A DNA stretch of 64,000 bases from Mytilus trossulus (Eukaryota): positions 96,100,001 to 96,164,000 of the forward strand of contig NC_086373.1 in NCBI RefSeq assembly GCF_036588685.1, written 5' to 3'. This document shows, piece by piece, positions 6,201 to 52,303 of the stretch. The position numbers and the translations under genes are program-made. Position 1 is the first letter of the stretch. Each line of letters starts with the position of its first letter. The notes under the pieces were generated by a model. That model did no database searches. It saw only the letters and a list, made by a program, of their open reading frames with translations, and was not told the DNA's origin.

Positions 6201-9200
6201 TTTTCCAACAAATCAAACAATATATCCAATAAAAACTTTTTTAAACCTAATAATACTCTCAGTAGCAAAGTTTTATTAATGAAAATAAGTCAAAAGCCTA
6301 AAACTTGTATATTCCAGTAAAATTAAAAAGATATTGTTTAATAAAAATCATAATGCTACATTTGTATACTAACCAACATGAATGTTGTTCATATCCATGC
6401 CTGTAATAGTAACTGTCACATGATCACCAGCAAAAGCACATGGATAAGAGACATCATTGATAGCTAAACCTGAAAGTTGCATAATCAACAGATTATAGAA
6501 TTATATACATTAATGAAATAATGACAAACAAAAACCAGCTCATTAATTTACTGATCTGGTATTTCAGGATATAATTTGATTGAAATGCAGTGAAAATAAA
6601 AAAAAAATAATAGGAGGTAACTCTGTAATTTCCCATCATTCTAACATCATTCTAACCATAGCTATCTAGAGATTTCTCACATTACCAGACACTAAGAAAA
6701 AAAAGGCTGTTTTGTCTGAGGTTTTTCTTTTAACCATGTTTTAAAAATCTTTCAAAGCCTGGTGCCTAAATACAAATGTAAATGCAACAGGGACAGTAAT
6801 GCACATGTGAAGCCAAAGGTACTTACAGGATACAAATTCTCCTGTAAGTCTGTTTTGGATATTTTATATACCAAGTAATGTGACAAATAGAAAATTGACA
6901 CTTAAGAGAGTTGTCTTATTGGCAATTATACCACATCATCTTATTTCTATATAATTCTTTGTCATAATATTTTCATCCCCATTTCTTGTAAAACATAAAA
7001 ATAACATCCAAGGAATGAGGTTGTTGTCATATATTGTACATGCTAACCTTTAACTGCCACAGAATCCCCACTAGGAAGAACCAGTAATCTGTCTCCAGGT
7101 TGTACTGATCCTGTCACTATCCTCCCAGTAACACTGAATCCACTTCCCATACCCTTAAATATATCTCCAACACACAATCGGAATGGTTTGTCAATAGATC
7201 GAGTCACAACTTTAAACTTATCTGAAAAATAGAGGACAAAAAGTATCTGAAATTAATCATATAGCTGTAGAAGAAATTTCTGATTTTCAAGTGTATCCGT
7301 AATAAAATGTCAAAAATCCAGTTACAATCCTGTACTAAAAGTCAAACCAAATATATTTTAATGACTATTATATGTTATACAAGAAACAGAAAATAACAAA
7401 CTGATTGCATAGAATGTATGTTGCATCCTAATATAAAAGACAAATCCTAACTGTTAATGGAAATACCATCATCTTGGGGAACTATCCAGTGTTTATCATC
7501 TTCTGGTAAATTCATTGAAACCAAAGCCTTGGTATATCTACTTACCAATTTGTTCCTCAAGCGTACTGCCTTTATACCATGACTCAAGTTTAGGTTCTGG
7601 AATTCTCCCTGTTAAATTAACACCACTTATTCCACTACAGGGAATAAATGATATATCATTTTCTTTATATCCAACTTGTTTTAAAAACTGTCCTAATTTT
7701 TTGGTAATATCATTATATCTAGTTTCTAACCAATCAATAGTGTCCATTTTATTCACTGCAACAATTAGTTGTGTTACGCCTGAAAAATATATAATCTTTT
7801 GTGAATACTCTAGTAAATATGAAACAAAGCAGATCTAATAAATACTGTGCTCTTTCCAGTTTTGACATTCATAAAATGAAGTTCATCCGATGCAGTGAAA
7901 AGGATATTTGCTAGATCCAAAATGACTCCAGCAATGCTTCCAACACATCATTGTAACTGTACATGTACTCATAAAATGGTTACAATAAATTATTATTTTA
8001 ACTCTTGTCACCTTGAAATTGAGTGCAGATGTCATCCAATATAAAGTAATGTTACAGGTCTTAATGGAATTGCATTAAAATTTGACAGTTTCTGACTTTA
8101 TACAGATTCTCTTTACTTAATTAAATTGTCCGTTTGGTATTTTTTCGCCACTCTGTTAATGTAAATCATTGCCTGTCCTCTGAGTTGTAATTTTACAAAC
8201 ATAGAATCTGTCAGTTCTCAATTCTGTCCAGCTTTCCCCAAGCTCAATTATCTAGTCACAGGTCCCAATTAAAACCCTGGTTTTTTTCTTACCTAAGGAT
8301 CTGGCTAAAATAGCATGTTCTCTAGTTTGGCCCCCAAGTTCAAATCCTGTTTCAAATTCTCCTTTAGTGGCATTAACTACCAGTATGGCTACATCTGCTT
8401 GTGCTGTTCCTGATTAAAAGATAAATATAACAATCTTTCATCTGATGTACATGAGATACAATACATGGAATGTTCTCAAATTTGAATTAATGGAGATGTT
8501 AGCTTTACAAATCAATGGCAAATCAAAATGACATTAAGTTTATAATGCCAGACCAATTAAAGATACTTCATTTATAACAATAATAATAAAAAAATATCAT
8601 TTAAGGTGGTACCCAACACTTTCACTAAAATTAATTTGGCTCGTTTAATTTTCATGAAATTTTGACAAAGTGTTAACTTTGACCCTTTAACCAAAATTTT
8701 GAACCAACCATTTTATCAGAAAAATTACACTGGTTATATAGCAGTTTGTCAAACACCAATTTAATAATTGAGAAGCTTAGTATTCCCTTTACAACACAAC
8801 GTAATTAAAACTTTTAACTGATTTTACAGAGTTATCTCCCTGTAGTGTTAGGTACCACCTTAAAAGAAACACTCCACTTTATCATCACATGTATTAACTT
8901 TGTTAGAGGCATGATTTGGAAATCTGAGTGAAATTAATCAGTTGTCAGATGACAAAAAAATAATCTAATCTCTGAGCTTCATACCCATTATCATATTTGG
9001 TATAAAATCATATAGAATTTTTATATATTTTTATAAACATGCTATAATATTACCTGTTATCATATTTGGTATAAAATCTTTGTGTCCAGGAGCATCTAGT
9101 AAGGTTATAACCTTCTTTGGAGTCTCAAATCTGGACTGAGCAATATCCATAGTAACACCCCGAGCACTGCCAAATATATGACAAATGAAAATAGCAAATA

Positions 9201-12200
9201 ATTTTAAACAAATCATAAAGAATAAATCTTAATCGTACATTTATAAAGCAACACACTTTATTCACTAAACTCGTTAGTTAATTAAAGCTGTTTATATGTG
9301 AATAATGTACTGAAATAGCAAACTTGAATATAATTTTAGGTAACATCCAAGAAACTTTTTACTCTGGGGAGTTAACATATTAAGTGCTATTGATTGTTGC
9401 TTGAATAACATACAGTGGTAATCTTTTGTGAACTGTATGTAGAGGTTTACATGAGTTTATCCTTAGAAATATGTGTGTGAGCAAGGTTTGTCTATAATTT
9501 TACCAGATACTTTTTTATTGGTTAATCAGCAATACAGCAGTCATAGTTTTGAAAACAACCACCAGGACAAAATAAAACTTTTAAACCTTATATTAACACT
9601 TACCGTTCCTCCTCAGTTTCATCAAGAACCCAGGCGAAGGCAAATGATCCTTTGCCTAACTTCTTAGATTCCTGTTCATATTTATGCATGATTCGTTGGT
9701 TTATCTCCCCTAGCTGGTACAACAGATGACCCATTAGAGTACTCTTTCCAGCATCTACATGTCCTATATAACAACAAAGTGATTTAAAAACTATAATAAA
9801 ATTTATACATTATTCACTTTTTACATTATAGCATAAGCTTTCTTCAGAAAAAGTTCATAAGAAGAAAATACTTAACAGTAAAGCTGTATGTCTGTCAATT
9901 TCAAGATGGTAGAAAGCTAGGACACTTATAACAATAATTTCCTGCAGAATATATTTACCTATAACAACCATATTTAATTGATCCTTTTCTGCAAGTCTTT
10001 TGTCATATTCTTCCTTCATTTTTGCTGGATCTAATAACAACTTGGCTCTACAAGAAATTTTAATATTATTTTTTTCTTCAAAATGTAAATATTTTTCTCT
10101 TCAAATCATTAATGATAATAATTTCAAAATTTCTTTTATTATTTGATTACACTGATGTGGCATTTAGTGTTGATGTCTTGTGAATAGTTTTTCAATTCTA
10201 TATCTGAATGACTTTTAAGTTATGGGATGAAAATTACTTATCTAGGAACATGCCTTGTTGACCATAATCACAAATTGTTGAACTGTTTAGATGTTTGTGT
10301 GTACCTCAAACTTAGTCCTATGTACTTGGTTTGATTCAAAGATTTACATCTGGTATGGAGATATGCGTCAATGATTTCAGTAAAACGTTTTGAAGATGAT
10401 CAATGCTGAGTGATGAAAATAGCTCATATGTTGTTTTGTTTTTTTACATTAACAAGGCTGTTGATGATTTTTTAAATTGTTTCACATTTGCCATGTCACA
10501 GCTTTGTATAGCTTACCATACAGTATAGATTTTGCTCATTGTTGAATACTGAACAATGACCTATAAATGTTTACATCCAGGTCCTTTGGTCAGGTAGACA
10601 TTTTATTTTCATACCACATGTCTATATTTGTACACATCTGTTATATCTGACATAATTTGAACTTACTTAGAAGCACTCCTCGGAATAGCTCCAAGAGATG
10701 GGTCTTTTTTAGGGGTCAAGAAACTGTCAGTTTTAGACTCCACTTTTAGAGTATCCCCTTTAGAATCAGATTTCACTGTCAGTACACCACTATCTGTTTT
10801 TAAATCGTTTTTTCCTGTCCGTAAATTACTGTCTTCAGAATTACTAGCTGCTATCCTTCCTTTATCACTGTCAATATTTAGACTAGTTTTCACATTATTA
10901 GATAATGTTTGAGACTTTTGCAAAGATTCACTTTTATCTGAATTTAATTGACTGTTTGTGGCTTGATCACTACTGTTTAGTGTCTTTTCAGGACTTTTAG
11001 AAGATTGTCTCCCCTTCGGTGGTACTTTCAATATCACTGTTGGTGGGGCTGTGGCAAATGCTACAATGTCAGCAAATAAAACATTAATTCTGAAAGTAAA
11101 ATGTTAATGCAAGCTAAACCTAAGTAGAAACAGTTCATGAAAATATAATGAAGTCTAGTCATTTTTTACTATTTTTTAATGTTACTTGCAAAATATGGGA
11201 AAATGAAAGAAATATGATTTCAAAGTTACCTCTGGATACTGCGTTTTGATCATAAAGAAGCTTCTGTAAAATTTTCATAAAATTCTATGATGTTTGACAA
11301 ACTTATTGATGTGTAAAAAAAACTTTTAACTACAGTCTGAACCATCTTCGCTAGCCAAGGGTTACAATCCCCTCCCCTCCTCTCCACCCTAGGCAGATTG
11401 AGATGGAATTTCAGAGACACAAGGTAATGATTCTTATTGTTTGCAGTCATAACTGGATGCATCCAATCTAAAATCACCTATAACATGATCAAGTGTAAAT
11501 GTAAGTAAACAATTGCCACATGCTGATTGTGCAACAAGTCTGTACAGCAGAACACACACAGACAATATTAAGGTAGATCACAGGTATATATTTTTTGAGA
11601 CAGAATTTTTTGCCGAAAATTTGCCGAAATGAAGATTTTACTATGCTCTTTTCAAAAATTTAATGAAAAGTATGGTTCACCGTGCTATTTTTCAAGCAGT
11701 GAGTCGTTGAAAATTGCCAAAATTTGGTTAGTTTGTTCATGAAAAAACACATTAGTGTGCATAAAAAAAATTCTATGAGATAGAATTTTGAAATAAATTG
11801 TGAGAAGAAAGATTTCATAATATGTCTTAAGAAAATAAAAAGAAAGCATGGTGTCACCGAATTTGTTTTCCTGCTACAAGTAAAAATAAAAAAAATCCCT
11901 ATAAGTCCAGTGTAAATTTTGTACTAAAAGAGTTATCTCCCCTTAAATGGCTCATTTGAAAAAAATGATTTTCACACCAAAAAAAATGATATTTGTTAAA
12001 ATATTTTGTATAATACGATGAATTAACAAGTTATTTTCAAATAGAAAAAAACAGTCTTACTATTGAATTGCAAATATGTCTCTAAATTTGCTGATTTAGG
12101 CAAATAACTAGACCTATTTTGTACTGTGATTGTATAATCCAAGATGGCGATATACCATCAATCTACCTTAAGTGACAATTTAAATGTTTATTTAACTATT

Positions 12201-15200
12201 AGAAGTTCCTGTGTATGTTTCTTGCACAAATGTTGTAATGTCAATCAATATATATTTTCTTTTTCTGCTTCACCAAGTGTGTAGACTCTAGAAGCTATCA
12301 TGTTTTCCTCTTCACTAAAGAGTGTTCAAGTGCTACTATTTGTCAAGAATAATGTATCTGCCAAAGATGGAGAGAAGGGAAGTGGATCATATTCCTTGAA
12401 TAGTGAAGATGATACAATTGCACATAAAATATCATTGACTTACCATTACTGGTTCATTAAAAACTGACATTAATAGTTTGTTATTAATTGTGCTGTTAGA
12501 TTTCTGGTTTGAATTGCTTCACATTTTTCATAGCAGACTACTTTTACTCATTTTTTAAGGCCCTACAGTGGCTGATTGCTACCACTTTATTTGAACATTG
12601 GTAGATAGTTGTGCAATTACATCATTTTTTTAAAGTCCATGGACCATAAATAAGGGGGCAGAACCAAATAATCTCCACGAATATGAGATGAGCCAATGCT
12701 GATACAACAGGGGCCTTGTCAAGTTAATGCCGTCTTAGGATTAAAATGGTCGATTCGAAAGATGTTGATATTGTTTACAAATATAGACTTTTAGACTGAT
12801 GATTCTAGAACATTGTAGAAAATTTCAAAATAAATGTGCTGGGCTGACTAAAAGATCCCATGCCATTCCCGTCTCATTATAAATTGTCGGGTTTTTTTGT
12901 GTTGCTCATGTAAGTTTTTCATTTCTTCAGATTTTTTCAATGTTCTTTGATGGTCAGTATTTGAAACTATGACCCTTGTGCAGATACTATCCCATGTCTT
13001 CTTCTAAAAGTTATTTGTCATCACATGTACCGGTAATAAGTTGGTGAATAAAATCCCCTATGCTTATTTACCACAGCAAACAGAATTTGTATTTTAGGTT
13101 CAGATTTTTTTTCTGTTATTATACTCATACTAATTCTATACATGTAATGAGATTAGTATTACCAGTATGTAAAAACTTTAAATATATATATAAAGATTTA
13201 AGAATTCCCTTTGAAGGGCACCAATCATTCCCATCTACCAGGGTTCACGTGGATAGGCATGTATATTTCCCAGTTATCAGGTCCCCATTGATAGGTATGA
13301 AACATTTACAGTAAACAGGGTCCCCATTGATATAATAATAATAATAATAAATTATAACCAGATGCTCCGCAGGGCGTAGCTTTATACGACCGCAGAGGTT
13401 GAACCCTGAACGGTTGGGGCAAGTATGGACACAACATTCAAGCTGGATTCAGCTCTAAATTTGGATTGTGATTAAATAGTTGACACAGCATAGGTTTCTG
13501 ACACAGAATGAATGTGTTCTAATGAACTTAATTTTTTTTGTTTTCTCTTAGAGCAATTCACTATGCTGTTGAATATTAATCCTCTCAAAAAAATGTTTGA
13601 AGAAATTTTCTTTTTTAAATGAGAAAAATTGAACCCAATTTTTTAACCACATCCCCCTTTCCCTTATTCCAAAACTAATCTCAATTAAAATATTCTAATG
13701 GAGTTTGCAACAATAACTACTCATTTAAATACATCATAAAATATTAAGATGTAAAAAAAACAGCTTGTTATCACTGAATAGTAAAGATTATTTAAATTTA
13801 TCAGTGGGTAGTAAAAAGTGAATATACATTGTATATTGTATATAACAAAGATTTAAGTTGATTCTGGAAAAAGAAAGATAACTCCAATTAAAAAAAAATC
13901 TTGCTATTGCACAATATTGTGCAATAAGATATTTCTTGCTTACTATTCTGGACAAAGAAAGATAACTCTAATTAAAAAAAAATTTGCTATTTCACAATAT
14001 TGTGCAATTAGATATTTCTTGCCATTGCGCAATACTGTGCAATTGAAAAGACTTGCTATTGCACAATACTTAATATAATAATTTTAGATCCTGATTTGGA
14101 CTAACTTGAAAACTGGGCCCATAATCAAAAATCTAAGTACATGTTTAGATTCAGCATATCAAAGAGGCCCAAGAATTCAACTTTTGTTAAAATCAAACTT
14201 AGTTTAATTTTGGACCCTTTGGACTTTAATGTAGACCAATTTGAAAACAGAACCAAAAATGAAGAATCTGCATACACAGTTATATTTGGCATATCAAAGA
14301 ACCCCATTTATTCAATTGTTGATGAAATCAAACAAAGTTTAATTTTGGACCCCGATTTGGACCAACTTGAAAACTGGGCCAAAAATCAAGAATCTAAGTA
14401 AATTTTTAGATTCAACATATCAAAGAACCCAACCGATTCATTTTTTTGTCAAAATCAAACTAAGTTTAATTTTGGACCCTTTGGACCTTAATGTAGACCA
14501 ATTTGAAAAGGGAACCAAAAGTTAAGAATCTACATACACAGTTAGATTCGGCATATCAAAGAACCCCAATTATTCAATTTTGATGAAATCAAACAAAGTT
14601 TAATTTTGGACCCTTTGGGCCCCTTTTTCCTAAACTGTTGGGACCAAAACTCCCAAAATCAATACCAACCTTCCTTTTGTGGTTTTAAACATTGTGTTTA
14701 AATTTCATTGATTTCCATTTACTTATACTAAAGTTATTGTGCGAAAACCAAGAATAATGCTTATTTGGGCCCTTTTTTGGCCCCTAATTCCTAAACTGTT
14801 GAAACCAAAACTCCCAAAATCAATCCCAACCTTTCTTTTAGGGGTCATAAAACTTGTGTCAAAATTTCATAGATTTCTATTAACTTAAACTAAAGTTATA
14901 GTGCAAAAACCAAGAAAATGCTTATTTGGGCCCTTTTTGGCCCCTAATTCCTAAAATGTTGGGACCAAAACTCCCAAAATCAATACCAACCTTCCTTTTA
15001 TGGTCAGAAACCTTGTGTTAACATTTCATAGATTTCTATTCACTTTTACTAAAGTTAGAGTGCGAAAACTAAAAGTATTCGGACGACGACGACGACGACA
15101 ATGACGACGCAGATGACGATGCCAACGTGATAGCAATATACGACGAAATTTTTTTCAAAATTTGCGGTCGTATAATAATAATAAATTCTTTATTTAAAGA

Positions 15201-18200
15201 GGGTAGTTACAATAACTAATCTTACCTGAGGCCCTCAAAATGTCAAAGATTGCACATCTTCATGCTTCTCACCTTCATATATTCAGTATTTGCAGCAGTG
15301 TATAAATGTCAAATGATAGGCAAGTATTGTTTTCAGATACTAACCTATCATCCCATGTCTTCTACTTCAAATTATTTTTCACCACAAGGGGCCCTAATAA
15401 CTGGAATTAAGTCATGCCCATCATGATTTTCAAAACATTTACCGTATGTTATATCTTCAGTATGTGTTACTGATGCCATTATAGTCTATTTAATTGCAAT
15501 TGTGTTCATAAGTGTATGCGCATGTGTGTGTAGTTTTACAAAAGATAATATATTTATATAACACCATAAAAATTTATTAACCAATGGAAAAATATTCAAA
15601 AAATACAAAATCTACATAACAATATCATATTTGTTAGTACATATAAATACAATTAATCATGAAGGTGGGAGCATCAAATTAAAGTGAGCTTTTAAAAAAC
15701 TGTACAAAATGACCATATTACTTAATAATATGTCTTCAATTTTTTTAAATCTATGTATTTTATACCATAATATCTTTTCAACATACCAACATACATCATA
15801 TAATCCTATTTACCATGCAAAATAAATGGCACAGTATTTTAATTCATTTAATTGCCTCATCATGGAAACATTTGTATACAATAATACGATTTAATATGAT
15901 AGAATTGATGTAGTTCTTATTTCATTGTTGCAAACTCTAGAAAGAAATTATCACATATCTCTGTCTAAAATTTAATTTTACCATCAATTATTGGTTTATT
16001 TAACATAGTTAAACAATTTCAAATACATTTTTTTAGCTATGCAGATAATCAAACAAAATTACAAGTTGCATTTACCATCACAATTCATTCTAACAACATC
16101 ATTTATTTAAAATATCATTGTTCACTCAAACTATACAAAGTTTTGTTGTTAATTACATTTCTAAACTTACTATTGCGTACTGTGTCATATTGCACATAAT
16201 TATAACATGACAAGAGCAAACTGAATTTATATGAATGAAAAGTTTACTTAAGGAATGTTTACCTTAGAAAAAGCAATTAAACACCAAAATTGTACAACTA
16301 TTACGTCATATATTCAGTATTTCAGCAGTGTATATATGTCAATAGATATCGTAATTACAGTATTTCCAGGAGTGTACAAAGAATCAAATGTAATGTGACA
16401 GCCAAGTCAGTGAATTTATAATAGATAATATCATATTCTTATTTAAAAGTATTAAGCATTGAGTCAAATAATTAAAATAAAAATCAATACTCCATCAACC
16501 TCTGACAGTATGAATTTATATGTAGATATTATGATACAGATGCTATATTTCCAAAATTATAAACACTTTTTTTTTTAAATTCCTATTTTTCATGTAGAAT
16601 GATAGCTATTATGGTCAAAATAGGATTATAATGTGACATAGACCAAGCCACTGCAAATGTGATATGTAAGTAAAGCGATAAAAATTTATTTCAAATTTTT
16701 ATAAATTGTGTACAGCATAACATTTCATCAAGAATCAACATAGTGGGTCTCATTGGGGTCTAAGCGTGATGTGGAATTGCCGATTTTTGAAAGTCGAATT
16801 ATTGTGGCGTGAAAACAGGAAATGAGGTCTTGCAGGACCCGGGAAATGACAAAAAAATTAGAATTGCTTACGCACATAGTGTAAGTGGGATACAGGAATC
16901 TAACAAAACAGTAAGCGGGATCCGGGATCAGAACCCCCCAATGAGACCCCCAACATAAGTGTCTATATTTCCTGAATCTTTATCTACTGTGTTAGACTTT
17001 GTATGCCTTCAGCTGTTATCTGCTCTTGGTCACATTAGCGTTGTTGTCTCTTTCACACATTACCCGTTTTCATTCTCAATTTCATTTATTAGTTTACAAA
17101 TGAAAAGTTAGTCCTAGTGATATTTAATGCTGCCAATATTATGCTACTGAGATGATGAACAAAAGAGAGAAATTGTAAATGAAACATGTAATATCATAAA
17201 TTATAGCACTTAAAATTAAATATTGCTTACATAATTATGTCCTGTGCCAAAATTGAAAGGGAACATTTTGTTCTAGCAGCTGAGATCAAACATCATAAAT
17301 ACATGTATATACAATAATCAAATAAATAACAATAATACATAATTATAAAAACATTAATAAATATGAATGCATATCCTACTATGAAACATGTGAAGAAAAT
17401 AAACTCATTATAGATACCAGGATTGAAATTTTGTATTAACGCCTAATGTGATTTTGTCTTCAAAAGACTCATCAGTGACGCTTGAATCAAAAAAATAAAA
17501 AAGGCAAAAAAAGTATGAAGTTGATGTGCATTGAGAACCAAAAATTCCTAAACTTCTACCTTACTTATTTCAGATATCAGAATTCTATTGAAATATTTCT
17601 ATAGATTTATGCAAGTCAGATACAGGAACAAGATGTATAATCAACAAAAGTTGTGGCAAAGGACTTTCTAAATTTATTGATGAGAAGTATATGTCATCTA
17701 ACAGCAACATAAACCCTTAGGTAGTAACAAGTCAGTATACAGACTTAAACAAAAGTTAAAATTGTATGCTATTCCTTTGCAGAGTTCCCAGTTAAGTTAG
17801 TTTATATAATTTCTTTTAAAGGTGGCCCCCTTGAATTACTGCCATTCATTTTGCAATAAGGTTTTCCCAAAGTAATATCATTTCTATATACATTCCTATC
17901 AACATTCTTAATTTAGCAAATAACAAAAAATACTATATTTATAATACAAATATTAAACACATTCATGTATGAGAATATTTACAAAAGAACAATTTAGTAC
18001 TTTATGACTGATTCTGTGTGTGCCAAAAAAATATACAAACATTTTGTTTACTGTATACATGTATAATATATATATATGCAATTTTTCTTGGATTTTCCTG
18101 AGGAAATATTTCATTCAATTTACACTTTCGCTGGATTTTATTTCATACAAATTTAGTCTCTTCCAAAGTTAAAACAAGAATGTGTCCCCAGTACACAGAT

Positions 18201-21200
18201 GCCCCACTCGCACGATCATTTTCTATGTTCAGTGGACCTTGAAATTGGGGTCAGAACTTTAATTTGACATTAAAATTAAAAAAGATCATATCATAAGGAA
18301 CATATATACTAAGTTTCAGGTTGATTGGACTTCAACTTCATCAAAAACTACCTCGACCAAAAACTTTAACCTGAAACTTGACAGACAAACGAACAGACAG
18401 ATGAACAGACGCACAGTCCAGAAAACATAATGCCCCTCTACTATTGTAGGTGGGGCATAAAAAATAAATCTTTTTCTTAAAATCAGTTTAAGCAAATTCC
18501 AAATCTCATAATATCAGTATGGCACACACAGAATGATTTTGTTATCAGCTTCTTTATTTATAGTACATGTGCCAGGTTCTTCCCTTTAAAACACATTCCA
18601 TTTCATTCTGTCTACCTCTACCATTCTATCTGTCTTGTCTCTATTTTCTCTGCTTCAACACAGGATATTCATTGTTTATCAACAGTTTTAGTACTTGGTG
18701 TTCTTTCTGGTAAAGCTGCCGTTTTAGTATTCTATCTACCTCTTTCTCATAATCATACAATAGCTGTTGTCTAATAATCATGTCTGCTTAAAAATGGATT
18801 TTGGATGTTCATTTTTTCTCACCAGTTCTAGTAAATGCTGCTTTCTGTTTAGATCTGACAATATCATCAGGTGACGGAGTAGTAAAATCAAATGGAATAA
18901 TCTCATTCATAATGTTACATGACCTTTTAATATTCTTCATTTGATGAGTATAAGAAAATTGACCGTATTTCCTTTTCTTATTTATCTTATAATTACAATC
19001 ATAAAGACATAAAACCTGTCCAAGAAATGAGGCCTGAAATTTCACAAAGTCACATTGAACAGTATTAATAGTCTCTTCAGAAAAGGTTGGAAGTAGCACT
19101 TCATGGTCATGACCTTCAACTGATTCTTGTGCAATAAATTGTTTCTTTTCTTTTTTAACAGTTTGAGAAACTTTTGGAACAGACTTGACAATTTTCTTCC
19201 CAGCCAAATCAGTCAGTGAAATATTGGACTCCTTTTTCAAATTAGATATCTTTAAACCATCTAAATTGTATACTAATTTATCTCCTTGACTAGGTTTAAC
19301 TTCATTAGATGATGTTTTTGACAAAGCTGCCAGTGATGTCATACTTTTCCCTGAGTTCTGACTATCGGTAGATTGTGTAGAGGAATTAACATGTGTTCCT
19401 GGTTGATCTGAAGACTGAGTTAAGCGTTTGCTAGGAAGTTGTTTTGATGGTAAAGCTAAATCTGACAATGATAATTGTTTAGCTGTATTATGTTTAACAT
19501 TGGCTAATTCTGCCAAAGATGGTTGTGTTGACGTTCTTGTAGACTGAGAACTAGCCAGTTCTGCCAAAGATGGTTGTTTTGAAACTCCTACAGACCTAGA
19601 ATTAGTCAGTTCTGCTAAAGAAGGTTGCCTTACTTGGATAGAAGAATCTTTAGCTATTTCTGCTAAGGAAAATTGCTTCCCTGTACCAGAAGGAAGTATT
19701 TTGGTCAAATCAGTTAACTTGCTTTTCAAGGTATCATGACCAATTTCAACACCAGATAATTTACTCTCCAATTCAGTCACCTGGTATTGGTTATCAGTTG
19801 TTTTATCTTTGTTCAAATTTGACACCCCTTTCTGACTGGCCAATGCAGACAAAGATGGCTGTTTGGAGGATGGTGTATTCTGACTGGTCAACTTAGACAC
19901 TGATGGCTGCTGTTTGGATGATGCATTCTGATTGGTCAGCTCTGATAATGAAAGCTTCTTTGATAAATTTAGTCCAGATAAATCAGATAATGATGGTTGC
20001 TTAGCAGATGTTCTCTGGTTGGCCAATTGAGATAAAGATGGTTGCTTTGAAGACAAGTTTTGAGTAGCCAGTTGAGATAAAGGTGTATTTTGCTTTGCAA
20101 AATGTGATAAGGACGACTGCTGACTACATGATGAGTTCTGTTTAGCTAACTCTGATAAAGATGGCTGCCCTTTGCACTTTACATTCTGACCTGTTAATTC
20201 TGATAATGGTATCTGCTTTCTAGAAGAAACATTTTGTTTAGCCAATTCAGACAATGACTTATCTTTTGTAGAAACTGCTGATTGGTTTGCAACATTTATC
20301 AGAGCAGGCTGTTTGGAAGATAATGAATTCTGATTGGCTAGCTCTATAACTGATGGTTCATCAGGTGTACATGACAAATAATCAGAAGATCCAGTGGATG
20401 GATACTTTTCTCTTTTTCTAATGCCTGATTCTTGACCATCAGGTGTTGTGGAAAGACATTCTGATGAACCGGCGGAGGAATAATTAATAATTTTAGCTTT
20501 TAATGCAGTATTTGATATATTTTCTAATGAACTCTCAGAAGACCAGCTACCGCCATATTTCAGTATCCCTAAGGACTGTTTTAAATTATGAGAGAAATTA
20601 ATTTTAGGGGAATTAGTATCAAGGGATTGTAAAAAGTCATCAAAATCATCATCATAATCTCCTTACCTTACAGATGCCAATTTTAATCCAATCACAATTG
20701 TTGTTATTAATATTTGTAATTGACCAATCAGATGTAGAGTTGTTTCAATGAATCACCATGCAGGAACAGGAAGAAATGAAAAAGAAAGAAAAGGCATGAT
20801 GTTAGGCAAGATATATAGTAGCTAAATTCTGCATTACATAAAATAAACTTTCTGTTCTATAACTTGTTACAGCTGTTCTATGTATGATTTTAATCACTAT
20901 TTTCTCAAACTTTCCTTCGATCTTTCTGTTTAATAATTTTCAGAATCGCACAACTTTACAGTTATGGTTTATACTCAGAAGTGTAGAAATAGTGTATAAA
21001 GTCATAAACCAACATAATTGACATTGCTTATTAAAATACAAATATAGCTATTGGTCTTTCAAACTTAAGGATTTTTCTCAGCTGCATCTCAGGGCTATTG
21101 CTCATTGATGATATTGCAACTTAAAAACTCCCTCTGGTTTAATCATCTATGATGATTGATATTTTACATCAATATTTGGCAAGTCATAAAATTATATTAT

Positions 21201-24200
21201 TCCTTTATCACTTAAAAAGTATATTTAAATTAAACTGTAGACTCAATATCAAAAAAAATTATAAACAACAATGTTTTCTTAAAAATGTTTTCTTTCAATT
21301 AGACCAAAATAACATCAATGTTTTATAAACATTCAAATGTGGAAGCTTTATTTACATAGTAAGTTCCAATTGTGTTGGAAAATTTGATGGTTTATTGGTT
21401 GATATCCACCTAGTGGCAATTATCTATATAGAATAAATAAATAGATGCAATGAATACCTTTGTCATGCTATTACAGCAGAATGCATCAGGTGTGTAGGAA
21501 AAGGTAATATCTTTAGTTAGCTTGCTTGCTAGCTGAATCATGAAGTCATTATAAGGTTAGGTAAACTACCTTCTTTTAAGAGTTAGCTAGTCCGTAGATT
21601 ACCAAGGCTTAAATTAAAATATCGTTTGTTTGCCCTTTACCGACCGACCCTTTAAATTCGTTCCGCCTGAAAATCTTTTATTTGCATTTTCCAGCAAGAT
21701 TTTATTTTATTTTATTTTTTCGTTCCTATCAAAAATCTTATATTTGAATTTGCCGCTCAAACCTTTTTACTGGAATCCTCGGGTTTTACATTTGTCGTAT
21801 AACGTCTAGTCCGTTTGGTATCACGTGAGCGTTTGACATGAACACTTGCATTTAGAGTTTCAAAGCATTTGTTTGAAATCGATATTGAACAGTACGTTAC
21901 TCTGTATCTTTATACTTGATGAGAAGGGTTCATTTACAAAACTATCAACGTGTGTACAAACTATTTTGTAAACGGACGTTGTATTCTATGTAGGGATGGC
22001 CTTTTCAAGGACGTATAACTAGCATACGTCCTTGGCCTTTTTGTGATCCGTAGATCAGGATGATTATGTTAACGATGCCTTCGACCAGTATTGCTATATT
22101 CATTATATCTGACATGAACCAAAGGTGACAAACGCCTTTAAAGTGGAGAGTATTTGGCAGTAAAATCGCCTAAGTTTTCCATACAGATCATTTTATAAAT
22201 GCGATGTAAAATATGTGACAATTGAGTTTCAACTTTCAAGTCTCATTGCATTTTAATTAGCAACATAGGCACAAACGAAAATTTAAACACTCTAGGGACT
22301 TTTTCTACTAGTAATGTATGTCTGCCTGGGCATATTTTACCAGGACAATATTAAACCTTATAGAAAACCTTTAGGTAGAGGTAAGCAAACAATGTACGTA
22401 GTACAGAATATTAGTGCAAGTTAAAACTCTTCAAAGTTCAAGGCATATAAACATTGAAAATATGCGACACAGCTCTATATTTTGATATTTGAAAACAAAA
22501 TAGTAGTGCATATGAATTAACTTCACATTCTACATGACATTTTTTTTTCAAAACTTCCTTGGACTATGATACAACTTGGAACAGTATATCTAACAATATG
22601 TATGTTCCTGGATACAAATAGTCCCACAAACTTTTTAGCAAAAGCAAAACAGACAAAATGACATTATGAAGATTTTTTATCTATAAAATAAAATATTATA
22701 CCTACCTGCCTACCAATGACAAAAAATATACCGACCCAAGTTATTTTTTTGGGGAAAAAATAAAATATTTTACCTTCCTACCTACCCTGTTTCAAAACAT
22801 AGGGTCGGAAAAGGGCAAACAAACAATATTTTAATTTAGGCCCAATACATGTATATCTGTAGAACTAGACTACTCAATAAGGAGAGTAGTAAACCTAACC
22901 TAATAATGACTTTACAGTTCAGCTAACAAGCAAGCTAACCAAAGATTATTCTTCGACCTATGCACTCATTGCATTCTGGTGTAAAGTCTTAAGCTGTATT
23001 ACCACAGTAATATTTGATCATAACTTTGGAGTATATTAGATGCATACCTTGTGATCTGTTCCTTCGTGAATCTCGAGGCTGTCTCTGTGGCTTTGGTGCA
23101 TCTAAAAAGGAAAACCATCTTGTTCAATCTTATTTGGGTGATTACAGATTGTACAATTGTATTTATTATAAGCTTGGCTGTTAGGTTTGGAATTTCAGTC
23201 AGTGCAGATTGAACATTGTATTTATTCAAGCTCAGCTCACTAGGTCTCGGAATTCATTTCGAACAGATTGAACATTGTATTTATCTATGTTCATTAGGTC
23301 TAAGAATTCATTCAGTGCAGATTGTAAATTGTATTTATCTAAGCTTGGCTGTTAGATTACATTGTACATGTTGTATTGATTTAAGTTAGGCTAATCGGTC
23401 TTGGAATTAATTCAGTGCATATATTCTATGTTGCATTTATTTAAGCTTGGCTGATATTTAATCTGGCTTATATGATTTCTAAATCCTTATAATGTCGGTT
23501 TAATGTTGATGTTATAACACTTGCATATGATGTTATACAAAAAATTAGTGGTGTCAGACTTTAATAAAATATTTTAGTTATTATCAGAGTAGATTTTATT
23601 ACACTTGTCTGTTTGATTCAGTTATTATTAGTGTAGATTTTATTTTGCAATTATTTAAGCTTGACTGATATTTAATCTGGCTTATTTGATTTCTAAACCC
23701 TTTTAATGTCGGTTTAATGTTGATGTTTTTACACTTGCTTGAATGATTTAGTAATTTTATCAGAGTAGATTTTATGTTGCAGTTATTCAATTTGCATGTT
23801 TGATTCAGTTATTATTAGTGTAGATTTTATGTTGCAGTTATTAAACTTGTCTGTTTGATTCAGTTATTATTAGTGTAGATTTTATGTTGCAGTTATTAAA
23901 CTTGCCTGTTTGATTTAGTAATTATCAGTGTAGATTTTATGTTGCAGTTATTCAACTTGCCTGTTTGATTCAGTTATTATTAGTGTAGATTTTATGTTGC
24001 AGTTATTAAACTTGCCTGTTTTATTAAGTAATTATCAGAGTAGATTTTATTAAACTTGCCTGTTCCTGTTTGGTTAAGTAATTCGTTCAGCGTAGATTGT
24101 ATGTTGTAGTTATGTTTGACAATGGTTTGAGCCATTATATGTTCAGGACAGGATTCTCCCAAGACATTTCTAACTTCATCCAGGCAAGAATTCAACTTGG

Positions 24201-26968
24201 CTAAAAAACAAATAAATATGATTAAAAAAAAGATTTCAGAATCATTTTTTGATGAGAGCATCTTGACAATTATGATTAAAAATTTACTATGATAATAGGG
24301 ATATCAAATGAATGCATGATAATTTTATCGTGTCAGTCATTTTTCTAATATATTTTACACAAATACATGAATTATTTTTATATTAGTAGATAAAGCTGGG
24401 TGTTTTAGGAATTCTAATGATGCCATTATCTGGCACCCAAGTCAGAAGACTCTTCTGAAATCTCAGCATCACCTTTTTTTTCAATGATCAAGGACTTTTT
24501 TTTATACCAAATTTCACACCTACACCTTACCTTGGTCTGTTTCATTTAACTGTAACCTAGGTGTTCCTGCAGAATGATTGAGAATTGTATCCTCATCACT
24601 CTCTCCTTCATCCTCTTCAGGAATATTCTCTTCCACATAAGATGACAAGTTAACATTTCTTTCTCCTCTATTGAAAGTGAACTGTGCAGCTGTAAATATA
24701 ACAACTTCTTGTTTATAATTAAATGTATAAGCTAACACATGAAACCTAATCAAGGAAATGCCTAAGAATTTCTATTAACCCTTACCATGTTGGGGCTGTT
24801 ATCTTATGGATGAACCCAGAATACCATTATTTTAGCTCCAATTGCTCTCCATACCTTTTGGCGGTCAACTTTATTAGTATGACATTTATTTCGTAGTGTA
24901 TATATATGTTATCTCAATCTGAAACCATTTAAAGTCATGATTCTCAGTTTTAATGTTCATTTTGAGCTAAAAATACGGACATTGAAAATTGAAATCTGAT
25001 AAAACTGGGTGTTTTCTTTAGGTGCGGACTTCCCTTCGATGTCTAACACACGAAGTTCAGAGGCCTAAAACTTCAACAAACAGTGTTAACCCACAGGCAT
25101 ATAACAACTGCTCTTGTTTATTATTGAAATATGCCTAGGAAACAACTACTTCCAGGTGCAGGTTAACATGGTCCAGTTCAAGTAAAAATTCAGAAAAAGT
25201 TTTGAATTTTTTGTCAAAATTACCTTCTTTAGACACGTTAGATTTTATTGAATCAGTTTTACTACTTGGTTTTAAATTTCAGGTGGCATCATATGGTAGA
25301 TGTACCACTATGGATTACCATAAAATGCAAAATCAATTCAATTGTACATGTATTTGATTTTTTTAAACTAAAACTGCACAAGTTCGTGGTTGTTTACAGT
25401 TTCATCCTACATTGAACCTTACCTTCGAAAGAGATACATGTATACATTAAATGTCCTCATGACTATAATATTACCTGTCCCTGGGGAGATACAATAGTTA
25501 TCCTCTACTGAATGGCCAAGGTAATCATCATCTTCCAAAAAATCTGAAGAAAAAACAATAACAAATTTGTTTGATTGGTATTTATGGTATTTTTATTTCA
25601 TGTTAATGTTAACTAATTAGAAAACCAGGCCAAAAACCTAGATAAAATGTACATAGTAAGATTCAACGTATCAAAACCCCATATATATTTAATTTTATTG
25701 AAAACAAACAAAGTTGTTTGGTCATTACTGTGGATCACTTTGAAAATGGGGTTGAAGTTTTTAAATCTTCATACACGGTCAGATTTAGCATTACATTGAA
25801 TTAAACCCCATTAAAATTGGTCAAGAAATATGCAATTAATACAAAGAAATAGAAGGATATTGTTATAGGATTCTTTTTCCTAGCAACTCCCTAAAACTAT
25901 TCCAACCTTCTTTTTTATATGTGGAACCTTGTGGTACATTTTCAAAGTGATCTATAGACTTATACTCAATTATTGTCTGACAATAAGGAACTCCTTGTAT
26001 AATTGTTCATAACTCCTGTCATAACTGCTAAAAAAAACATTCTTTTTAAGCTATGGACCCTTTTGGTATAATTTCACAGAAATACATTCACTTTTATATT
26101 CACAAGTTATTGTCCTGAAGTGAAACTACAAAAACGATTGGGTGTGGGCCCTTATGGTCCCCAATTCTTAAACAGGTGGGACAATAATGGCCTGGCACAA
26201 TCAAACCAAAACTTTCATTTGTGGTATGACCCCTGTGGCTGTGGTATAATTTCATTGAGATACATACACTTTTATTCAATTATATGTCTCGAAACGACAT
26301 TATATGAATGTAAAAAAAAACTGATACAAACGTAGACATGATAGGACTCAAAATACATCTCATGATGTTGGAGTGGCATGTATATATACATTGAATAGTG
26401 TGCTTTAATGTTTGTGATTTTTATTTTTATTTCATTTACTTGGTTGATTTGTAAAAAAACACCCATAGCCTTTTAGATCTTCTAAACTGTTGTGCATTGT
26501 TCCTCTAACATATGACGTAAATTTGCTTTGTCAATCTAGACTGGTTCTACACTGGACAAAATGGTTTTGCCAAAATATAAAGATTACTAACATTACACAT
26601 AGGTAAACTTGCTTTTTCTGCTAGCTCTCCATTGTAAATAAAAGTAAGATTAGGTTGTTTGAAAGTGGGGCAAGTTGGTAAAATAATGGGGTGATTTTGG
26701 CAACAAACCAAGCATGTTCTTAATTTTTAACAGGTCTGATGAAAAAAAACCGGACAAGCTTCAAAATCCAAGAAAATAATGGTCACTAAATTAAATAACT
26801 GCTTTATATCGAATAAACTACCGTACTACGTTTTTAAATTATTTCCCCCCAAATTTTTTAAATCATACAGTAAGAGAGGGTTTAATACTAGATTCATTTT
26901 TTAAGTTAGATGAATTTCGTTATACCTTCTTCATAGTTCATAGATCTGACATTCCTGTGTCGTGACAT
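3277..26968 (-). CDS. HBS1L: HBS1-like translational GTPase (Pelota/Dom34 partner), long isoform, about 747 aa, 17 coding exons
   Basis: Phase-consistent exons: 26968-26926 ([14 protein letters not shown]), 25543-25475 ([19 protein letters not shown]), 24689-24531, 24200-24060 ([15 protein letters not shown] donor), 23101-23048, 11060-10667, 10047-9959, 9763-9604 ([10 protein letters not shown]1), 9166-9054 (RGVTMD; DAPGH, G3), 8409-8293, 7779-7546 (NKMD, G4), 7221-7048, 6469-6374, 5968-5865, 5194-5094, 3913-3769 ([16 protein letters not shown]), 3327-3277 (stop TAA, followed by AATAAA). Sum 2244 nt. The N-terminus is typical of HBS1L rather than eRF3 or eEF1A. Confidence 0.96.
4236..4405 (+). 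repeat. Dispersed repeat family A (further copies at about 17400, 38675, 53700, 55055, 62120-62410 reverse, 63627-63937)
   Basis: Shared aaactcatcatagataccagga...gccagacgcgcgtttcgtctacaaaagactcatcagtgacgct. Confidence 0.85.
8601..8863. mobile_element. MITE with TTAA flanks (Kolobok-like)
   Basis: ttaaggtggtacccaacact ... agtgttaggtaccaccttaa. Confidence 0.75.
11568..12171. mobile_element. MITE with TTAA flanks (Kolobok-like)
   Basis: ttaaggtagatcacaggtat ... ataccatcaatctaccttaa. Confidence 0.65.
13356..15175. mobile_element. Helentron/HINE-like element with internal tandem repeats
   Basis: Subterminal inverted repeats tatacgaccgca / tgcggtcgtata, a (gac)n microsatellite near one end, and internal tandem units (tttggaccc..., aaaactcccaaaatcaat...). 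The element is inserted in an (aat)n tract. Confidence 0.7.
16745..16950. mobile_element. MITE
   Basis: Inverted ends gggtctcattgggg / ccccaatgagaccc with caacata on both flanks. Confidence 0.6.
18171..18462 (-). mobile_element. Short HINE-like element
   Basis: aaaacaagaatgtgtcc...gccccact ... (acag)n ... gtggggcataaaaa; same architecture as the other HINE-like elements, in opposite orientation. Confidence 0.55.
18809..20661 (-). CDS. HBS1L: Alternative terminal exon of HBS1L encoding a SKI7-like (HBS1L-V3/HBS1L3) short isoform lacking the GTPase domain; full isoform about 772 aa
   Basis: The frame of the 522-aa ORF is open upstream to 20662. Phase-1 acceptors AAG|GAG| (exon start 20661 or 20658) match the phase of exon 5. 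The C-terminus [10 protein letters not shown]...QFSY..Q...[25 protein letters not shown] matches the conserved end of metazoan HBS1L short isoforms. Candidate AATAAA at 18553-18558. Confidence 0.9.
20667..20822 (-). promoter_or_regulatory. Distant branch point, polypyrimidine tract and AG-exclusion zone upstream of the SKI7-like exon
   Basis: Minus strand CCTAAC (20806-20801) is followed by CCTTTTCTTTCTTTTTCATTTCTTCCTGTTCC. No AG dinucleotide occurs from about 20821 to 20669. Confidence 0.6.
21606..22842. mobile_element. Non-autonomous TIR element (about 40-bp TIRs, 3-bp caa flanks; Harbinger-like)
   Basis: ggcttaaattaaaatatcgtttgtttgccctttaccgacc ... ggtcggaaaagggcaaacaaacaatattttaatttaggcc. 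Confidence 0.8.
23120..24059. repeat. 55-bp tandem array (plus older degenerate copies) derived from the 3' end and donor site of HBS1L exon 4
   Basis: Unit cttgcctgtttgattcagttattattagtgtagattttatgttgcagttattaaa starts at 23791, 23846, 23901, 23956 and 24011. Degenerate copies extend down to about 23120. Confidence 0.9.
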
Positions 26969-33325: not shown

Positions 33326-36197
33326 ATGATGGCCAGCACGAAACAACCTATTACTCTTGTTACTGGAAATAAGAAAAAGCTTGAAGAATTTGTTGCTATT
33401 TTAGGAAAAGATTTTCCTTTTGAGGTATGTGTTGAATTTTGTACATGTAGCTTTCATGATAAAGATATATTTAAGGTATTTATTTACATGCTAAGGATAT
33501 GATAAATAATGAACGTTATGAGTTTTATACAAATAAAAAAAGAAGATGTGGTATGATTGCCAATGTGACAACTCTCCACAAGAGATCAAAATGATACAGA
33601 AATTAAAAACTATAGGTCACTGTATGGCCTTCAACAATTGGTAAAGCCCATAGCGCACAGTCAGCTTTAAAAAGCCTGAAATGACAATGTAAAACAATTC
33701 AACAAGACTGGCTTCCTAACTTTTTCTACAAACATTTTTTTAAATCCTGGTAGTTATTTGTGAATGTGTGTTCTTCAAAAACACATTTACTTAATTATGA
33801 TACAACCTATTTCCCCAATGTCTTTAATATTTAAAGGCCTTACAGTTTGACATACATTACAGGCCCGTAGCCAGGAATTTCAAAAGGGGGGTTTGTTTGA
33901 CTCACAAACTCGACTTTAACAGTCACAATTCGAACAGAACATTGCCTTTAACAGTGCTTATTTGTTTTCAAGGGGGGTTCGTCCGAACCCCCCCTGGCTA
34001 CGGGTATGCATTATGAAATAAAGAGATTTGGTATGATTTCCAATGAGACAACTATCCCAAGTCATTACCATACAGCTTTCTACAATGAGAATAACCCATA
34101 CCTCATAACAAACTCTTAAAGTCCCTGACATGACAAAATGTGAAACAATTCAAACAAGAAAACCAATGATCTGATTTATGTATGAAAGAAATATTATATA
34201 CAGCAGCAAACTTGTAGAACTATCTGTTTATGATTTGTTTACCAGAAGATAAAAAGACTAGTGGTCACTTTTGCACTGTACAATTAACTGAAAAAAAGGT
34301 AATAGAGTCATCAAACTTTTGTGTAAATGTTTAACCGAAAATAAAAGAAAAAGAGTTTTGCCCCTTTGAATATTATTTATACGGAAAATTTCATTGTTAG
34401 CTATCTCATGTTTATAATTCTTGCAAGATTTTATTCATACTTTTTATCAGCAGTGCCTCAGACATTAGTACATTTTTTCTTGAAACATGAATATACTGAA
34501 TTGGAGGGGAGTTACTTCATGATGTTTGATACTTAAATTTTTAACCGGATTTTTGGGACAAAAATGTCGGTTATTGACTTGGGGATGTACGGCGGGCGGC
34601 CAGGCGACAATCAATGTTGTCCATGCATTAACTCATGAACCGTTCAACCAAATCTTTTAAAATTTCAATACATTGTTACTGACAACTAAATGAAGGTCAA
34701 GATCAATAATGGCGATTTTGACTTTTAACGTTTAGGAGTTATGGTTCTTGAAAGATGGAAAAATGGAGTTTCCAGACGTGTCCGTGTTTTTACGCATGAA
34801 CTGTTCTACCAAATCTTCCCAAATTTTTATATGTTGTTACTGTTGACAAAATAGAGGTAATGTTAAATTATGACGATTTTGACTTTTACCGTTCAGGAGT
34901 TATGGTTCTTGAAAGATCGTAAAATGGCATTTCCATTCAAGTTGTTGCATTTACTCATGAACCATTCAATCTAAGCTTTTCAAATTTTAATATGTTGATA
35001 CTGATGACAAGGTTGAGGTCAAATTTGATATTGACAATTTTTACTTTCACCGTTCATCAGTTATGGTTCTTGTGATATTGGCAGGACACAAATAAATGTT
35101 AATAAATCCGGTTTGCTGTCGTTGTGACAGCCTCTTGTTAGATATATCCCTTCAGGTACCTCTTATTTCAAATGTTCTTTATAAACATGTTATTTGGAGT
35201 GTTTTAGTGAGTTCAGATTCTTATTTAACTAATTTACTGTTATTTATATTAGGTGATTAGTAATGATGTAGATTTACCAGAATACCAGGGGGAGCCAGAT
35301 GAGGTAGCCAGATCTAAGTGTGAATTAGCATCATCACAAATCAAAGGTCCAGTGATTACTGAGGATACATGTTTATGTTTTAATGCTCTAGGTGGCATGC
35401 CTGGTCCTTATATCAAATGGTTTTTAGCAAAGATAGGTCCAGAAGGTAAGAAAAAGCATTACCGGTACATATACTGCAAGTAGGGATAAAAGAACTCGGA
35501 AAAATAGTAGAAACATTCTTATATTTGAATAATGGATTACATAATTTACATTTTATTACAAATTTTCTGCGAAGCAGTTCAGATCAAAATGGCTTAATTT
35601 TAGTTAGTTCATGCATTAGTTAAATTGATTTTTTATAAGACTTAAAATCACCCCTTTTGTTTTTGTGTATTTTCCTAAATGTGTTGGACCTTATGTACCT
35701 TGGATCTGAATGTGACTTAAATTTGTATGAGCTGCGCCTAATATATTGCATTAGTTGAAACATCTGAAAATATCAATTCAAAGTTAAAAGTATGCTAACA
35801 GACTGAAAAGTGGGTTTTTTTTTTTTTTTTTATTAAAATGGGCACAACTAATAATTATAAAAACACATTATAAATGAGTTAACACAAACATTTTGTAATT
35901 TCAGGTTTACATAAGATGTTAAATGGATTTGAAGATAAAACAGCATATGCCTTATGTACATTAGCTTATCATTCTGGCCTTGAAGGATCAGAGGTTATCT
36001 TATTTAGAGGTCAGACAGACGGTCAAATTGTCTCGCCTAAAGGACCAAGAGACTTTGGTTGGGATCCATGTTTCCAACCTGATAAGTTTACAGAGACCTA
36101 TGCAGAAATGCCAAAAGATGTAAAAAATACAATTTCACACAGATACAAAGCTGTGACAGCGTTGAGAGAACATTTTATAAAACTTGCAAAGTCATAA
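33326..36197 (+). CDS. ITPA: Inosine triphosphate pyrophosphatase (HAM1 family), 194 aa, 3 coding exons
   Basis: Exons 33326-33424 ([14 protein letters not shown]), 35253-35445 (DLPEYQG; [21 protein letters not shown]), 35905-36197 (FGWDPCFQP; KNTISHR). GT-AG introns, phases consistent, 585 nt. Confidence 0.97.
33860..34008. mobile_element. MITE with 5-bp direct flanks (catta)
   Basis: caggcccgtagccagg ... cctggctacgggtatg. Confidence 0.65.
34540..35139 (+). mobile_element. HINE-like element, copy 1 (ITPA intron 1)
   Basis: ttttaaccggatttt...ggcgggcgg...internal tandem units...aaatccggtttgctgtcgttgtgacagcctcttgtt. Subterminal IR aaccggattt/aaatccggtt and a 3' hairpin. Confidence 0.75.
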
Positions 36198-50690: not shown

Positions 50691-52303
50691 CTCAGGTTTT
50701 ATATAATAAAATTGCAGTATTTGTGAAAATAAAGCTGTAAGAAACTTCCAGCTACTTTCATTGTCCCTTTGAGAAATTGAGAAAGATATCCGTTCAAAAT
50801 TGCAGTAATATGTTTACACTTTAAAAGCATCTTACATGCATTATCATCATTTATTACTGATAACGAAAAATTAAACTGTGACCATGAACATATATATTGT
50901 TAGATATACTGTTCCCATCTGTCACATTGGATTGAGCTGTATTGAATTTTGACATTAAAATTTGTCAAAAAGTAATTTTGAGTTTCTGTTTAAAATATTT
51001 TCTGCTTTTTCTTTCTTTTACATATATCTTTTGGTTTTCAATTCTAGTGTGTATATTCATTTACCATGCATAGATTTATTTTGTAACCTGCCTGGATTTT
51101 TTTTTTAAGTTGATCGCCAAAACCCAGAATCACCCTTATCCGCTTCCGGAATCGTATCCGATATTGTATTTTTTTTTCTTCACGGCAGCCATTGTTTACA
51201 ATGGAGTTTTTGTCAGTCAGATACGATTTCACTCGAATTTACACATTATTTGTCGTCGATTTTCCGTTTAAAGCTAGCGGTTGAACAAAATGAACATCGC
51301 TGTCATGCATAATAATGATGAAAAGAAGTTTGAGATCGTTTATTTGGAGACTTTGGTAAAAAATTTGCAAAGACCAAAGTATTTTTTTTTTAATTTTCAA
51401 GTGGACGGTGACTACGTCGGGCGTAGCTAGAAAACAAGTCCAAATTCCGCTTGCAAACGTGAAAGTTCGCGGACCTCGGACCACCGCTAATTTGAACCTC
51501 TGCCTCCAAATTGAAAAGATACAAAATTTTGTCTTCTAATTTGAAATTGCCGCCCAACAGCATGAACAATTGAACTTATTAGATATTTATGACGTAGTTG
51601 TACTACGTATTGATGACTTTTGCCATTTGGGAAATCTAAACTACTTGTCTTATTGACATATTTCATACAATTGTTCTTTGAAACCATAGCCAAAAGCACA
51701 GGCCATAATAAACTACACAAGGATTCCTAATAAGCACTAATTTCTATGTGCAACTCCAAAACTTTTGGATGATTCTACGATCATTTAAGTTTTTTTTGGT
51801 CATATTTTTTGTAATCCCGAATTTAAAGTATAAAAAAGGTTTCCAATTAGTAATATATAACTATATAACAGTAGCTATCTAGATAATACAATGGCAAGTA
51901 TTTTAGCATTTATTGGGTAGAACACAAATCTAAGGTGCTCGCATAATGCAGCTTAACAGCATAAAAAATGGTAAAATGATTATGAAAAACAACAATTGTG
52001 GTTTCAACTGCCCCAGGCAAAGTTGATATTATACGCTTTTTTAACTCAGTTTTGATAAATTACTCAACTTTCTGTTTTTTTTTACACATTCTTGACTTTT
52101 CAATGGGTTGGATTAAGCATTCATATTGACGGTAAACCAAGGGAAGGGTTACGGACTCACGCAATTCCTAAAAAGTTATTTTTTGAAATTATTGACATTT
52201 AAAAAATAGTAATTGCTAATCTTAAATCTACATAATGAAGGCTATTTTCGCCTTATCACAAACCCTATTGTTGTAAGGTATGAAGTAAAAATAATACACT
52301 CAC

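Follow-up and report, generated by a model that had tools for sequence, protein, structure and literature searches.

SKI7 is an adaptor protein that links the exosome, which degrades RNA, to its helicase complex (SKI). An earlier note on a 64,000-nucleotide stretch of the Mytilus trossulus genome (the window) described, from the letters alone, a SKI7-like exon in which a short leucine-rich motif is repeated about 20 times. What are so many copies of one motif doing in an exosome adaptor? For human SKI7, the structural answer to how the SKI helicase is coupled to the cytoplasmic exosome was a single short helix. Should that helix belong to a repeated motif, a simple grammar underlies a region that has been described as poorly conserved. 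SKI7s that occur naturally with one copy and with 15-20 copies would then form a ready series for the study of valency in co-translational mRNA decay.

The SKI7 exon and its motif array

As far as the available parts of the literature go, the SKI7 exon, its two C-terminal motifs (PMC5389692, PMC6143672, PMC7924785), the UBA-like domain (PMC13232801) and one SKI3-binding helix are known. The mussel exon is the metazoan SKI7 (HBS1LV3-type) isoform of HBS1L. A 617-codon open frame (20662-18812, minus strand) contains every motif peptide listed previously, both the 12 closely spaced copies and the later ones that include ISLTDLAG. Its product is 100% identical to the C-terminal portion of P0001, a 772-aa Mytilus trossulus protein. 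The proposed SKI7 identity is supported by the exon mapping of P0001, by a splice joint and by the match of the exon end to human HBS1L isoform 2 (PDB 9G8M chain E, E 1e-5). We identified the following parts of the gene.

18809..20661, minus strand: SKI7 (HBS1LV3-type) alternative last exon of HBS1L, from the exact exon mapping of P0001 and a splice joint; contains codons 157-772 and the stop of the 772-aa isoform
18833..18895, minus strand: Patch-4-like motif, from the match to PDB 9G8M chain E (E 1e-5)
19004..19039, minus strand: region of the 'SKI7-like' exosome (RRP43)-binding motif, a degenerate form of the human RxxxFxxxL
23046..26968, minus strand: span of five shared 5' exons (26968-26927, 25544-25476, 24690-24526, 24195-24061, 23102-23046)
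7541..11060, minus strand: downstream exons, mapped in part, of the long HBS1L GTPase isoform, from splice joints and a GTP_EFTU match at 7541-7834

The shared 5' exons encode an acidic N-terminus and the HBS1_N/UBAh domain. In contigs assembled from public runs, whose status as RNA is a guess, the long isoform skips the SKI7 exon (joint 11060/23048, in 3/4 runs). The joint into the SKI7 exon (20663/23045, with CT..AC ends) was found in one run of four, X14, with 24 letters on its short side, and the contigs of the other three (X1-X3) stop at 20660-20664, the 5' edge of the exon. P0001 is without the GTPase domain: HBS1_N is the sole domain detected, the stop lies at 18809-18811 and the GTPase exon is downstream. 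Pfam has no family for the SKI7 exon.

The C-terminal Patch-4-like motif, PFDFxxxSPDDIV, is present in the mussel exon. For the other exosome-binding motif, RxxxFxxxL, the aligned block is QASFLGQVL; it is without the Arg, Leu replaces the Phe, and it is kept in relatives. The motifs are defined in PMC5389692 and PMC6143672, and the available text of the latter notes that the R, F and L of the SKI7-like motif are not universal.

Several minor features of the gene were apparent. The intron at 23102-24060 has a GC donor (GC-AG), seen in 4/4 runs. At 18804-18853, contigs of 3/4 runs jump back by 50 nt and gain 5 letters at the joint. This looks like a tandem duplicate of the final codons together with the stop; it lies after the stop and leaves the protein unchanged. 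Very high contig depth indicates high-copy repeated DNA in the introns at about 13100-15500, 16700-18500 and 21500-23000. Gene models P0003 and P0007 begin the SKI7 exon ~63 codons later. Upstream of the repeats, Ser-rich blocks at about 20360-20560 (P0001 aa 190-255) are strongly kept in P0008-P0012, relatives that are otherwise 38-40% identical.

The linker of the exon contains 16-20 copies of S-L-[SA]-[EDQ]-L-[AT], the count depending on the pattern used, which bears out the roughly 20-fold repeat first described. A loose pattern finds 20 (12 in one cluster, 5 in another and three scattered), a tighter one 17 (5000 shuffles of the protein give a mean of 0.09 and at most 3), and a matrix trained without Mytilus 16. 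Applied to all six frames of the window, the Mytilus-free matrix gives 17 matches, 16 of them inside the SKI7 exon. The copies are arranged as follows.

19829..20356, minus strand: first cluster, 12 copies (aa 258-433), with a period of about 14-16 aa (42-48 nt)
19703..19720, minus strand: degenerate copy KLTDLT (aa 470-475; in KLTDLTK), absent from the list in the earlier note
19451..19672, minus strand: second cluster, 5 copies (FSLAEIAK, three alike units, LSLSDLAL), with a 48-51-nt period
19319..19336, minus strand: copy SLAALS (aa 598-603; in TSLAALSK)
19202..19219, minus strand: last copy, SLTDLA (aa 637-642; in ISLTDLAG), aligned in related mytilid-like proteins

In the first cluster, the first Ser is at 20353, the last copy is at 19855 and the copies lie 10-16 aa apart; those of the second cluster are spaced by 16-17 aa. 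The DNA retains periods of 48 and 51 nt, with units that are 60-81% alike. The second cluster is one 17-aa unit longer in M. galloprovincialis and M. californianus than in M. trossulus, and run X14 contains a 51-nt back-joint (19578/19528) inside the same cluster. The mussel copies arose by tandem duplication and still vary in number; the high number comes from local duplication of 42-51-nt units, as the DNA periods and the unit gained or lost among Mytilus show.

The array covers about 390 residues. Its earlier description as a disordered linker agrees with prediction: AlphaFold2 (with a 60-sequence alignment) gives pLDDT of 40-50 over the array and almost no helix in the free array, and the UBA-like domain and the last helix alone folded with confidence. 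A folded repeat domain is unlikely because almost the whole array has a pLDDT below 50. A protein atlas search with the repeat region returned no usable match. The motif had also been called amphipathic, which is true to a weak degree, as the mean hydrophobic moment of the copies is 0.29 and that of all windows of the region is 0.24; the primate SKI3-binding copy has 0.39.

Copies of the motif in other SKI7 proteins

We searched for orthologues with a repeat-free profile of the C-terminal 82 positions, which returned 257 representatives, 150 of them listed. In total 159 proteins were examined, and 38 shorter than 400 aa were set aside as probable fragments, leaving 121, of which 114 are not from Mytilus. 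Among the matches listed, the strict pattern has a median of 5 copies in the 121 proteins (shuffle mean 0.12; 3 proteins are without any), and in the 114 the Mytilus-free matrix has a median of 6 (90th percentile 11). By this matrix the motif is conserved in orthologues, as the earlier note anticipated, with at least one copy in 112 of these 114 non-Mytilus proteins against 0.1 in shuffles.

Copy number ranges from 0 to 17 among the matches listed. The highest counts there are those of P0036 (17), P0050 and M. trossulus (16 each), and P0111, P0039, Ruditapes and other Mytilus (15 each). Lower numbers were found in Ostrea (10), Mya and Ylistrum (8 each), Patiria (7), Protopterus (6), the chimpanzee (5), Scleropages (3), and Branchiostoma and Myxine (2 each). 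The copy number in the mussel had been judged to be expanded. With 16 copies against a median of 6 it is high in the range but not unique, because other lineages among the matches listed reach 15-17. A claim that Mytilus has the most copies came from Mytilus-tuned patterns and did not survive the count with the Mytilus-free matrix.

The usual form among the matches listed is a dispersed, non-tandem array of 5-10 copies. Large tandem expansions recur with different unit sequences (P0036, P0050, P0039, P0103, Ruditapes). In 38 full-length proteins we counted 0 copies in aa 1-140 and 221 beyond, and none in the part shared with HBS1L. A search with the array of P0039 (55-480) as query returned 8 proteins, all either known matches of the C-terminal profile or Patch-4-ended, and thus at that sensitivity no carrier other than SKI7.

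The protein of Patiria miniata (P0155, 1344 aa) has a SKI7 exon with 7 copies and the Patch-4 motif (671-760). The model is labelled with a translational GTPase domain, which would be a fungal- or plant-like architecture in an animal.

The SKI3-docking helix and the putative role of the copies

The available text of PMC11540850 places human SKI7 451-464 (helix H2) in the SKI3 TPR29/30 cleft via L454 and I458, as seen by cryo-EM. A pull-down with the L454D/I458D double mutant validated the human SKI7-SKI3 model, and a predicted second helix (H1, within human 430-465) is reported there to make no substantial contribution to binding. In primates the peptide 451-464 is NLSLSELIAETIDV (632-aa chimpanzee XP_009450320.4; same peptide and offset in PDB 9G8M). 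It contains a copy of the motif, SLSELIA at 453-459, in which L454 is the first Leu and I458 is position +5. Human H1 also spans a copy, SLSSLAF. The chimpanzee protein has five more copies, starting at 223, 375, 393, 414 and 434, and a degenerate one at 491; the human fragment 372-546 contains four or five copies besides H2.

Human H2 and the mussel copies share the exon, the place between the shared N-terminus and the exosome-binding block, and the S-L-S-E-L core. However, H2 has been published, in the text available, as one binding helix with a non-contributing H1 rather than as a repeat, primates have 5-7 copies and the mussel 16-20, and Ile at +5 is replaced in the mussel by Ala, Thr or Ser. 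At the L454 position, 18/20 mussel copies have Leu and 2/20 have Val. None of the 20 has I, L or V at the I458 position (A 13, T 5, S 2), where Ala is the commonest residue (65%) outside vertebrate-type sequences. The docking to the SKI complex that was proposed earlier is better founded as to the motif, because the motif includes the human SKI3-binding helix among its copies, and less so as to the second contact residue, which no mussel copy resembles.

From these sequence comparisons, we consider it probable, if not strongly so, that the mussel repeats are redundant SKI3-docking helices. The array is likely a redundant, many-handed tether because its motif matches the human SKI3-docking helix and recurs in animal SKI7s. 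The shared N-terminus would bind 40S or ubiquitin, as published for mammals, and binding to the exosome would fall to the two C-terminal motifs (SKI7-like and Patch-4), as published for human and zebrafish. The copies are likely low-affinity, redundant handles for grooves on the SKI3 TPR superhelix, and likely fold into two-turn helices on contact. The leucines of any S-L-x-x-L-A copy would fit between TPR B-helices of SKI3 in its open state, and one to three copies may be engaged at a time, as is the case for yeast Ski7 with its three helices. A high copy number is probably tolerated or mildly favoured, because many weak copies would raise the capture rate and buffer the loss of one. Counter-evidence comes from the absence of an I458 equivalent in any mussel copy and from the spare human copies, which apparently do not replace H2. 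The near lack of helix in the free array, the distribution of the His-ending copy and the weak constraint on plentiful copies (see below) also count against it.

We found no description of the SKI3-binding helix as a repeated motif, or of variation in its copy number, in the available parts of the literature, and published Ski7 alignments or Extended Data may show repeats. Marshall et al. reportedly aligned Ski7 across eukaryotes in 2018. One supplement of the human SLiM atlas has no entry for HBS1L, SKIC3 or TTC37. Fungal Dcp2 has helical leucine-rich motifs (HLMs), which are repeated short helical Leu motifs of variable copy number in a disordered tail. These belong to a different pathway (decapping) and have Edc3 and Pat1 as receptors, and are an analogy only.

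Similar short Leu-x-x-Leu helices occur in disordered regions of fungal Ski7. According to the parts of the reports that are available, yeast Ski7 places three helices in three Ski3 grooves (PMC10659929), and a fungal motif S1, S-K-L-[SA]-x-L-[LA], is duplicated as S1' in Schizosaccharomyces (PMC3597508). In post-duplication Ski7, S1 occupies the extreme N-terminus, the site of yeast helix H1, which binds Ski3 (PMC3597508, PMC10659929). It differs from the mussel motif in the Lys that precedes its first Leu, in its basic tail and in its copy number of 1-2. Its likeness to S-x-L-[SA]-x-L-[LA] was seen by eye in the available part of the alignment in supplement 3 of PMC3597508. The link between S1 and the mussel motif remains one by eye because the yeast and human Ski3-Ski7 contacts are reported to have diverged (Kogel et al., in the portion available). 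Sparse similarity of HBS1L3 to the yeast Ski-binding domain has already been remarked (PMC4942675, available text).

The array could also be a true multivalent scaffold, in which one exosome-bound SKI7 gathers several SKI complexes (e.g., on queued ribosomes) or drives condensates. Twenty evenly spaced motifs over about 390 residues of predicted disorder would suit such a role, as would the engagement of collided ribosomes by SKI3 (PMC11540850, available text). However, a spacing of 14-17 aa appears too short for neighbours that each hold a whole SKI complex, and one copy is enough in the exon of one clade (see below). Because the array has 4 aromatics in 394 residues it has no usual self-sticker grammar, and nothing was found in favour of the condensate formation once suggested for it. 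We regard the scaffold as improbable, the least probable of the readings given here.

A copy that ends in His bears on which partner the motif binds. In human and primate sequences this copy is at 375-383 (P0087), with the consensus SLA[DE]LIQEH. It is the best-conserved copy of vertebrate-type SKI7, aligning in 34/35 sequences, and the SKI3-assigned copy at 453 aligns in 17/35; the 35 were chosen by a C-terminal pattern, not all are named, and alignment in disordered regions is uncertain. His at +8 is present in 45% of 515 copies and in 95/112 proteins, against a background of 2.6% (among the matches listed), and in 0/16 M. trossulus copies. No role or partner for the human 375-383 copy was found in the available parts of the SKI7 literature. 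By alignment, the conservation of 375 compared with 453 suggests that the SKI3 groove is taken by different copies in different lineages, or that there is a second site or partner.

The second of these options would mean that the repeats mostly serve something other than the known cleft, either a second SKI3 groove or a helical-repeat protein such as FOCAD/RST1, with human 451-464 as a specialised offshoot. The wide occurrence of the His-ending copy would fit, as would the in vitro result, in the available text, that the remaining human copies do not appear to replace H2. FOCAD is a candidate because its Arabidopsis relative RST1 co-purifies with SKI7 (PMC6711988, available text). We nevertheless consider this unlikely. 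A sequence that lacks the 453 copy has to contact SKI all the same, and one such motif is retained in single-copy exons; no animal FOCAD-SKI7 contact was found in the literature (among the matches listed), and the 35 sequences carry the selection and alignment uncertainties given above.

A wider proposal, which we find doubtful, is that the SKI-binding region of animal SKI7 is an array of one motif class rather than a single helix, [ILMVP]-S-L-[AS]-[DEQ]-L-[AI]-x-x-(H). The number, from 1 to about 20, would be tuned by tandem expansions and would set the strength or stoichiometry of exosome-SKI coupling, and the His-type copy (human 375-383) would bind a site or partner missed by the human structure.

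Selection on single and plentiful copies

We return to SKI3 docking by redundant copies, which can be compared with the way selection acts on them. A metagenome scan found 28 loci, of which 17, from one animal clade, have a single A-type copy (PSLASLAQKL or LSLASLAQKL) in the exon frame, which is about 250-300 codons long; copies were counted within the exon only. Three near-duplicates were dropped, leaving 14 single-copy loci with a median protein identity of 54%. In these the motif is invariant over 9 columns and is the best-conserved 9-mer of the exon (window median 0.41, Patch-4 0.98). Its dN/dS is 0.03, compared with 0.50 for the linker and 0.36 for the C-terminal block (the pairs are not independent). 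A mussel-like A-type motif can be the only copy of an exon, because single-copy exons keep it invariant. Single-copy loci L006-L027 also have a second kept block, MIKSTFSR, ~22 aa before the motif, and KKPS before the motif, like the KQPS of the mussel.

No such constraint on the cores was seen where copies are many. For a pair of 14-copy loci (L004/L002), dN/dS is 0.43 in eight strict-pattern cores and 0.23 in the linker, on a small core count of 3 synonymous and 3 non-synonymous changes; a further pair (L013/L015) was too close for dN/dS. On these sequences, a lone motif is strongly conserved and the motif in multi-copy exons appears to be under relaxed constraint, which is what redundant sites would be expected to show.

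The mussel copies are only weakly more constrained than the spacers. Better conservation as protein than as DNA, one of the original claims, holds among the copies, with pN/pS of 0.37 in the six core codons, 0.14 in the two Leu and 0.87 downstream, a comparison that is partly circular because the copies were chosen by protein pattern. The selection inferred from it stands where the motif is single, as strong purifying selection; within Mytilus, constraint per copy is not significantly above that of the spacers. Between congeners, core sites differ by 5-14% and spacers by 10-21%, a difference in the anticipated direction that is not significant in 4/4 comparisons (6/120 vs 28/269, p 0.12; 16/117 vs 57/272, p 0.12; two others, p about 0.47). 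Among the 22 exon variants listed, synonymous and non-synonymous changes number 5 and 1 in cores and 7 and 9 outside (p 0.16).

These results could also be read to mean that one or a few copies work and that the rest are nearly neutral products of slippage and unequal crossing-over; the length of the linker would then be of little importance. The absence of significant per-copy constraint, the decayed mussel copies (ALINVA, SVSKLT, SLSHFA), the units gained and lost among Mytilus and the range of 1 to 17 copies in SKI7 exons (among the matches listed) all point in this direction. However, expansions in unrelated sequence contexts always amplify this motif, dispersed non-tandem arrays are the norm, and Leu codons are scrambled between copies while Leu itself is kept. 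We consider this explanation quite unlikely, a little more so than service to another partner. The motif is real and selected, and the animal-wide array and the His-type copy are more interesting than the mussel count.

Elsewhere in the window, exons match Ham1/ITPA (35253-36194, plus strand), annexin (45385-45627, minus strand) and, below the cut-off, an adhesion-GPCR GPS motif (52268-52519, minus strand).
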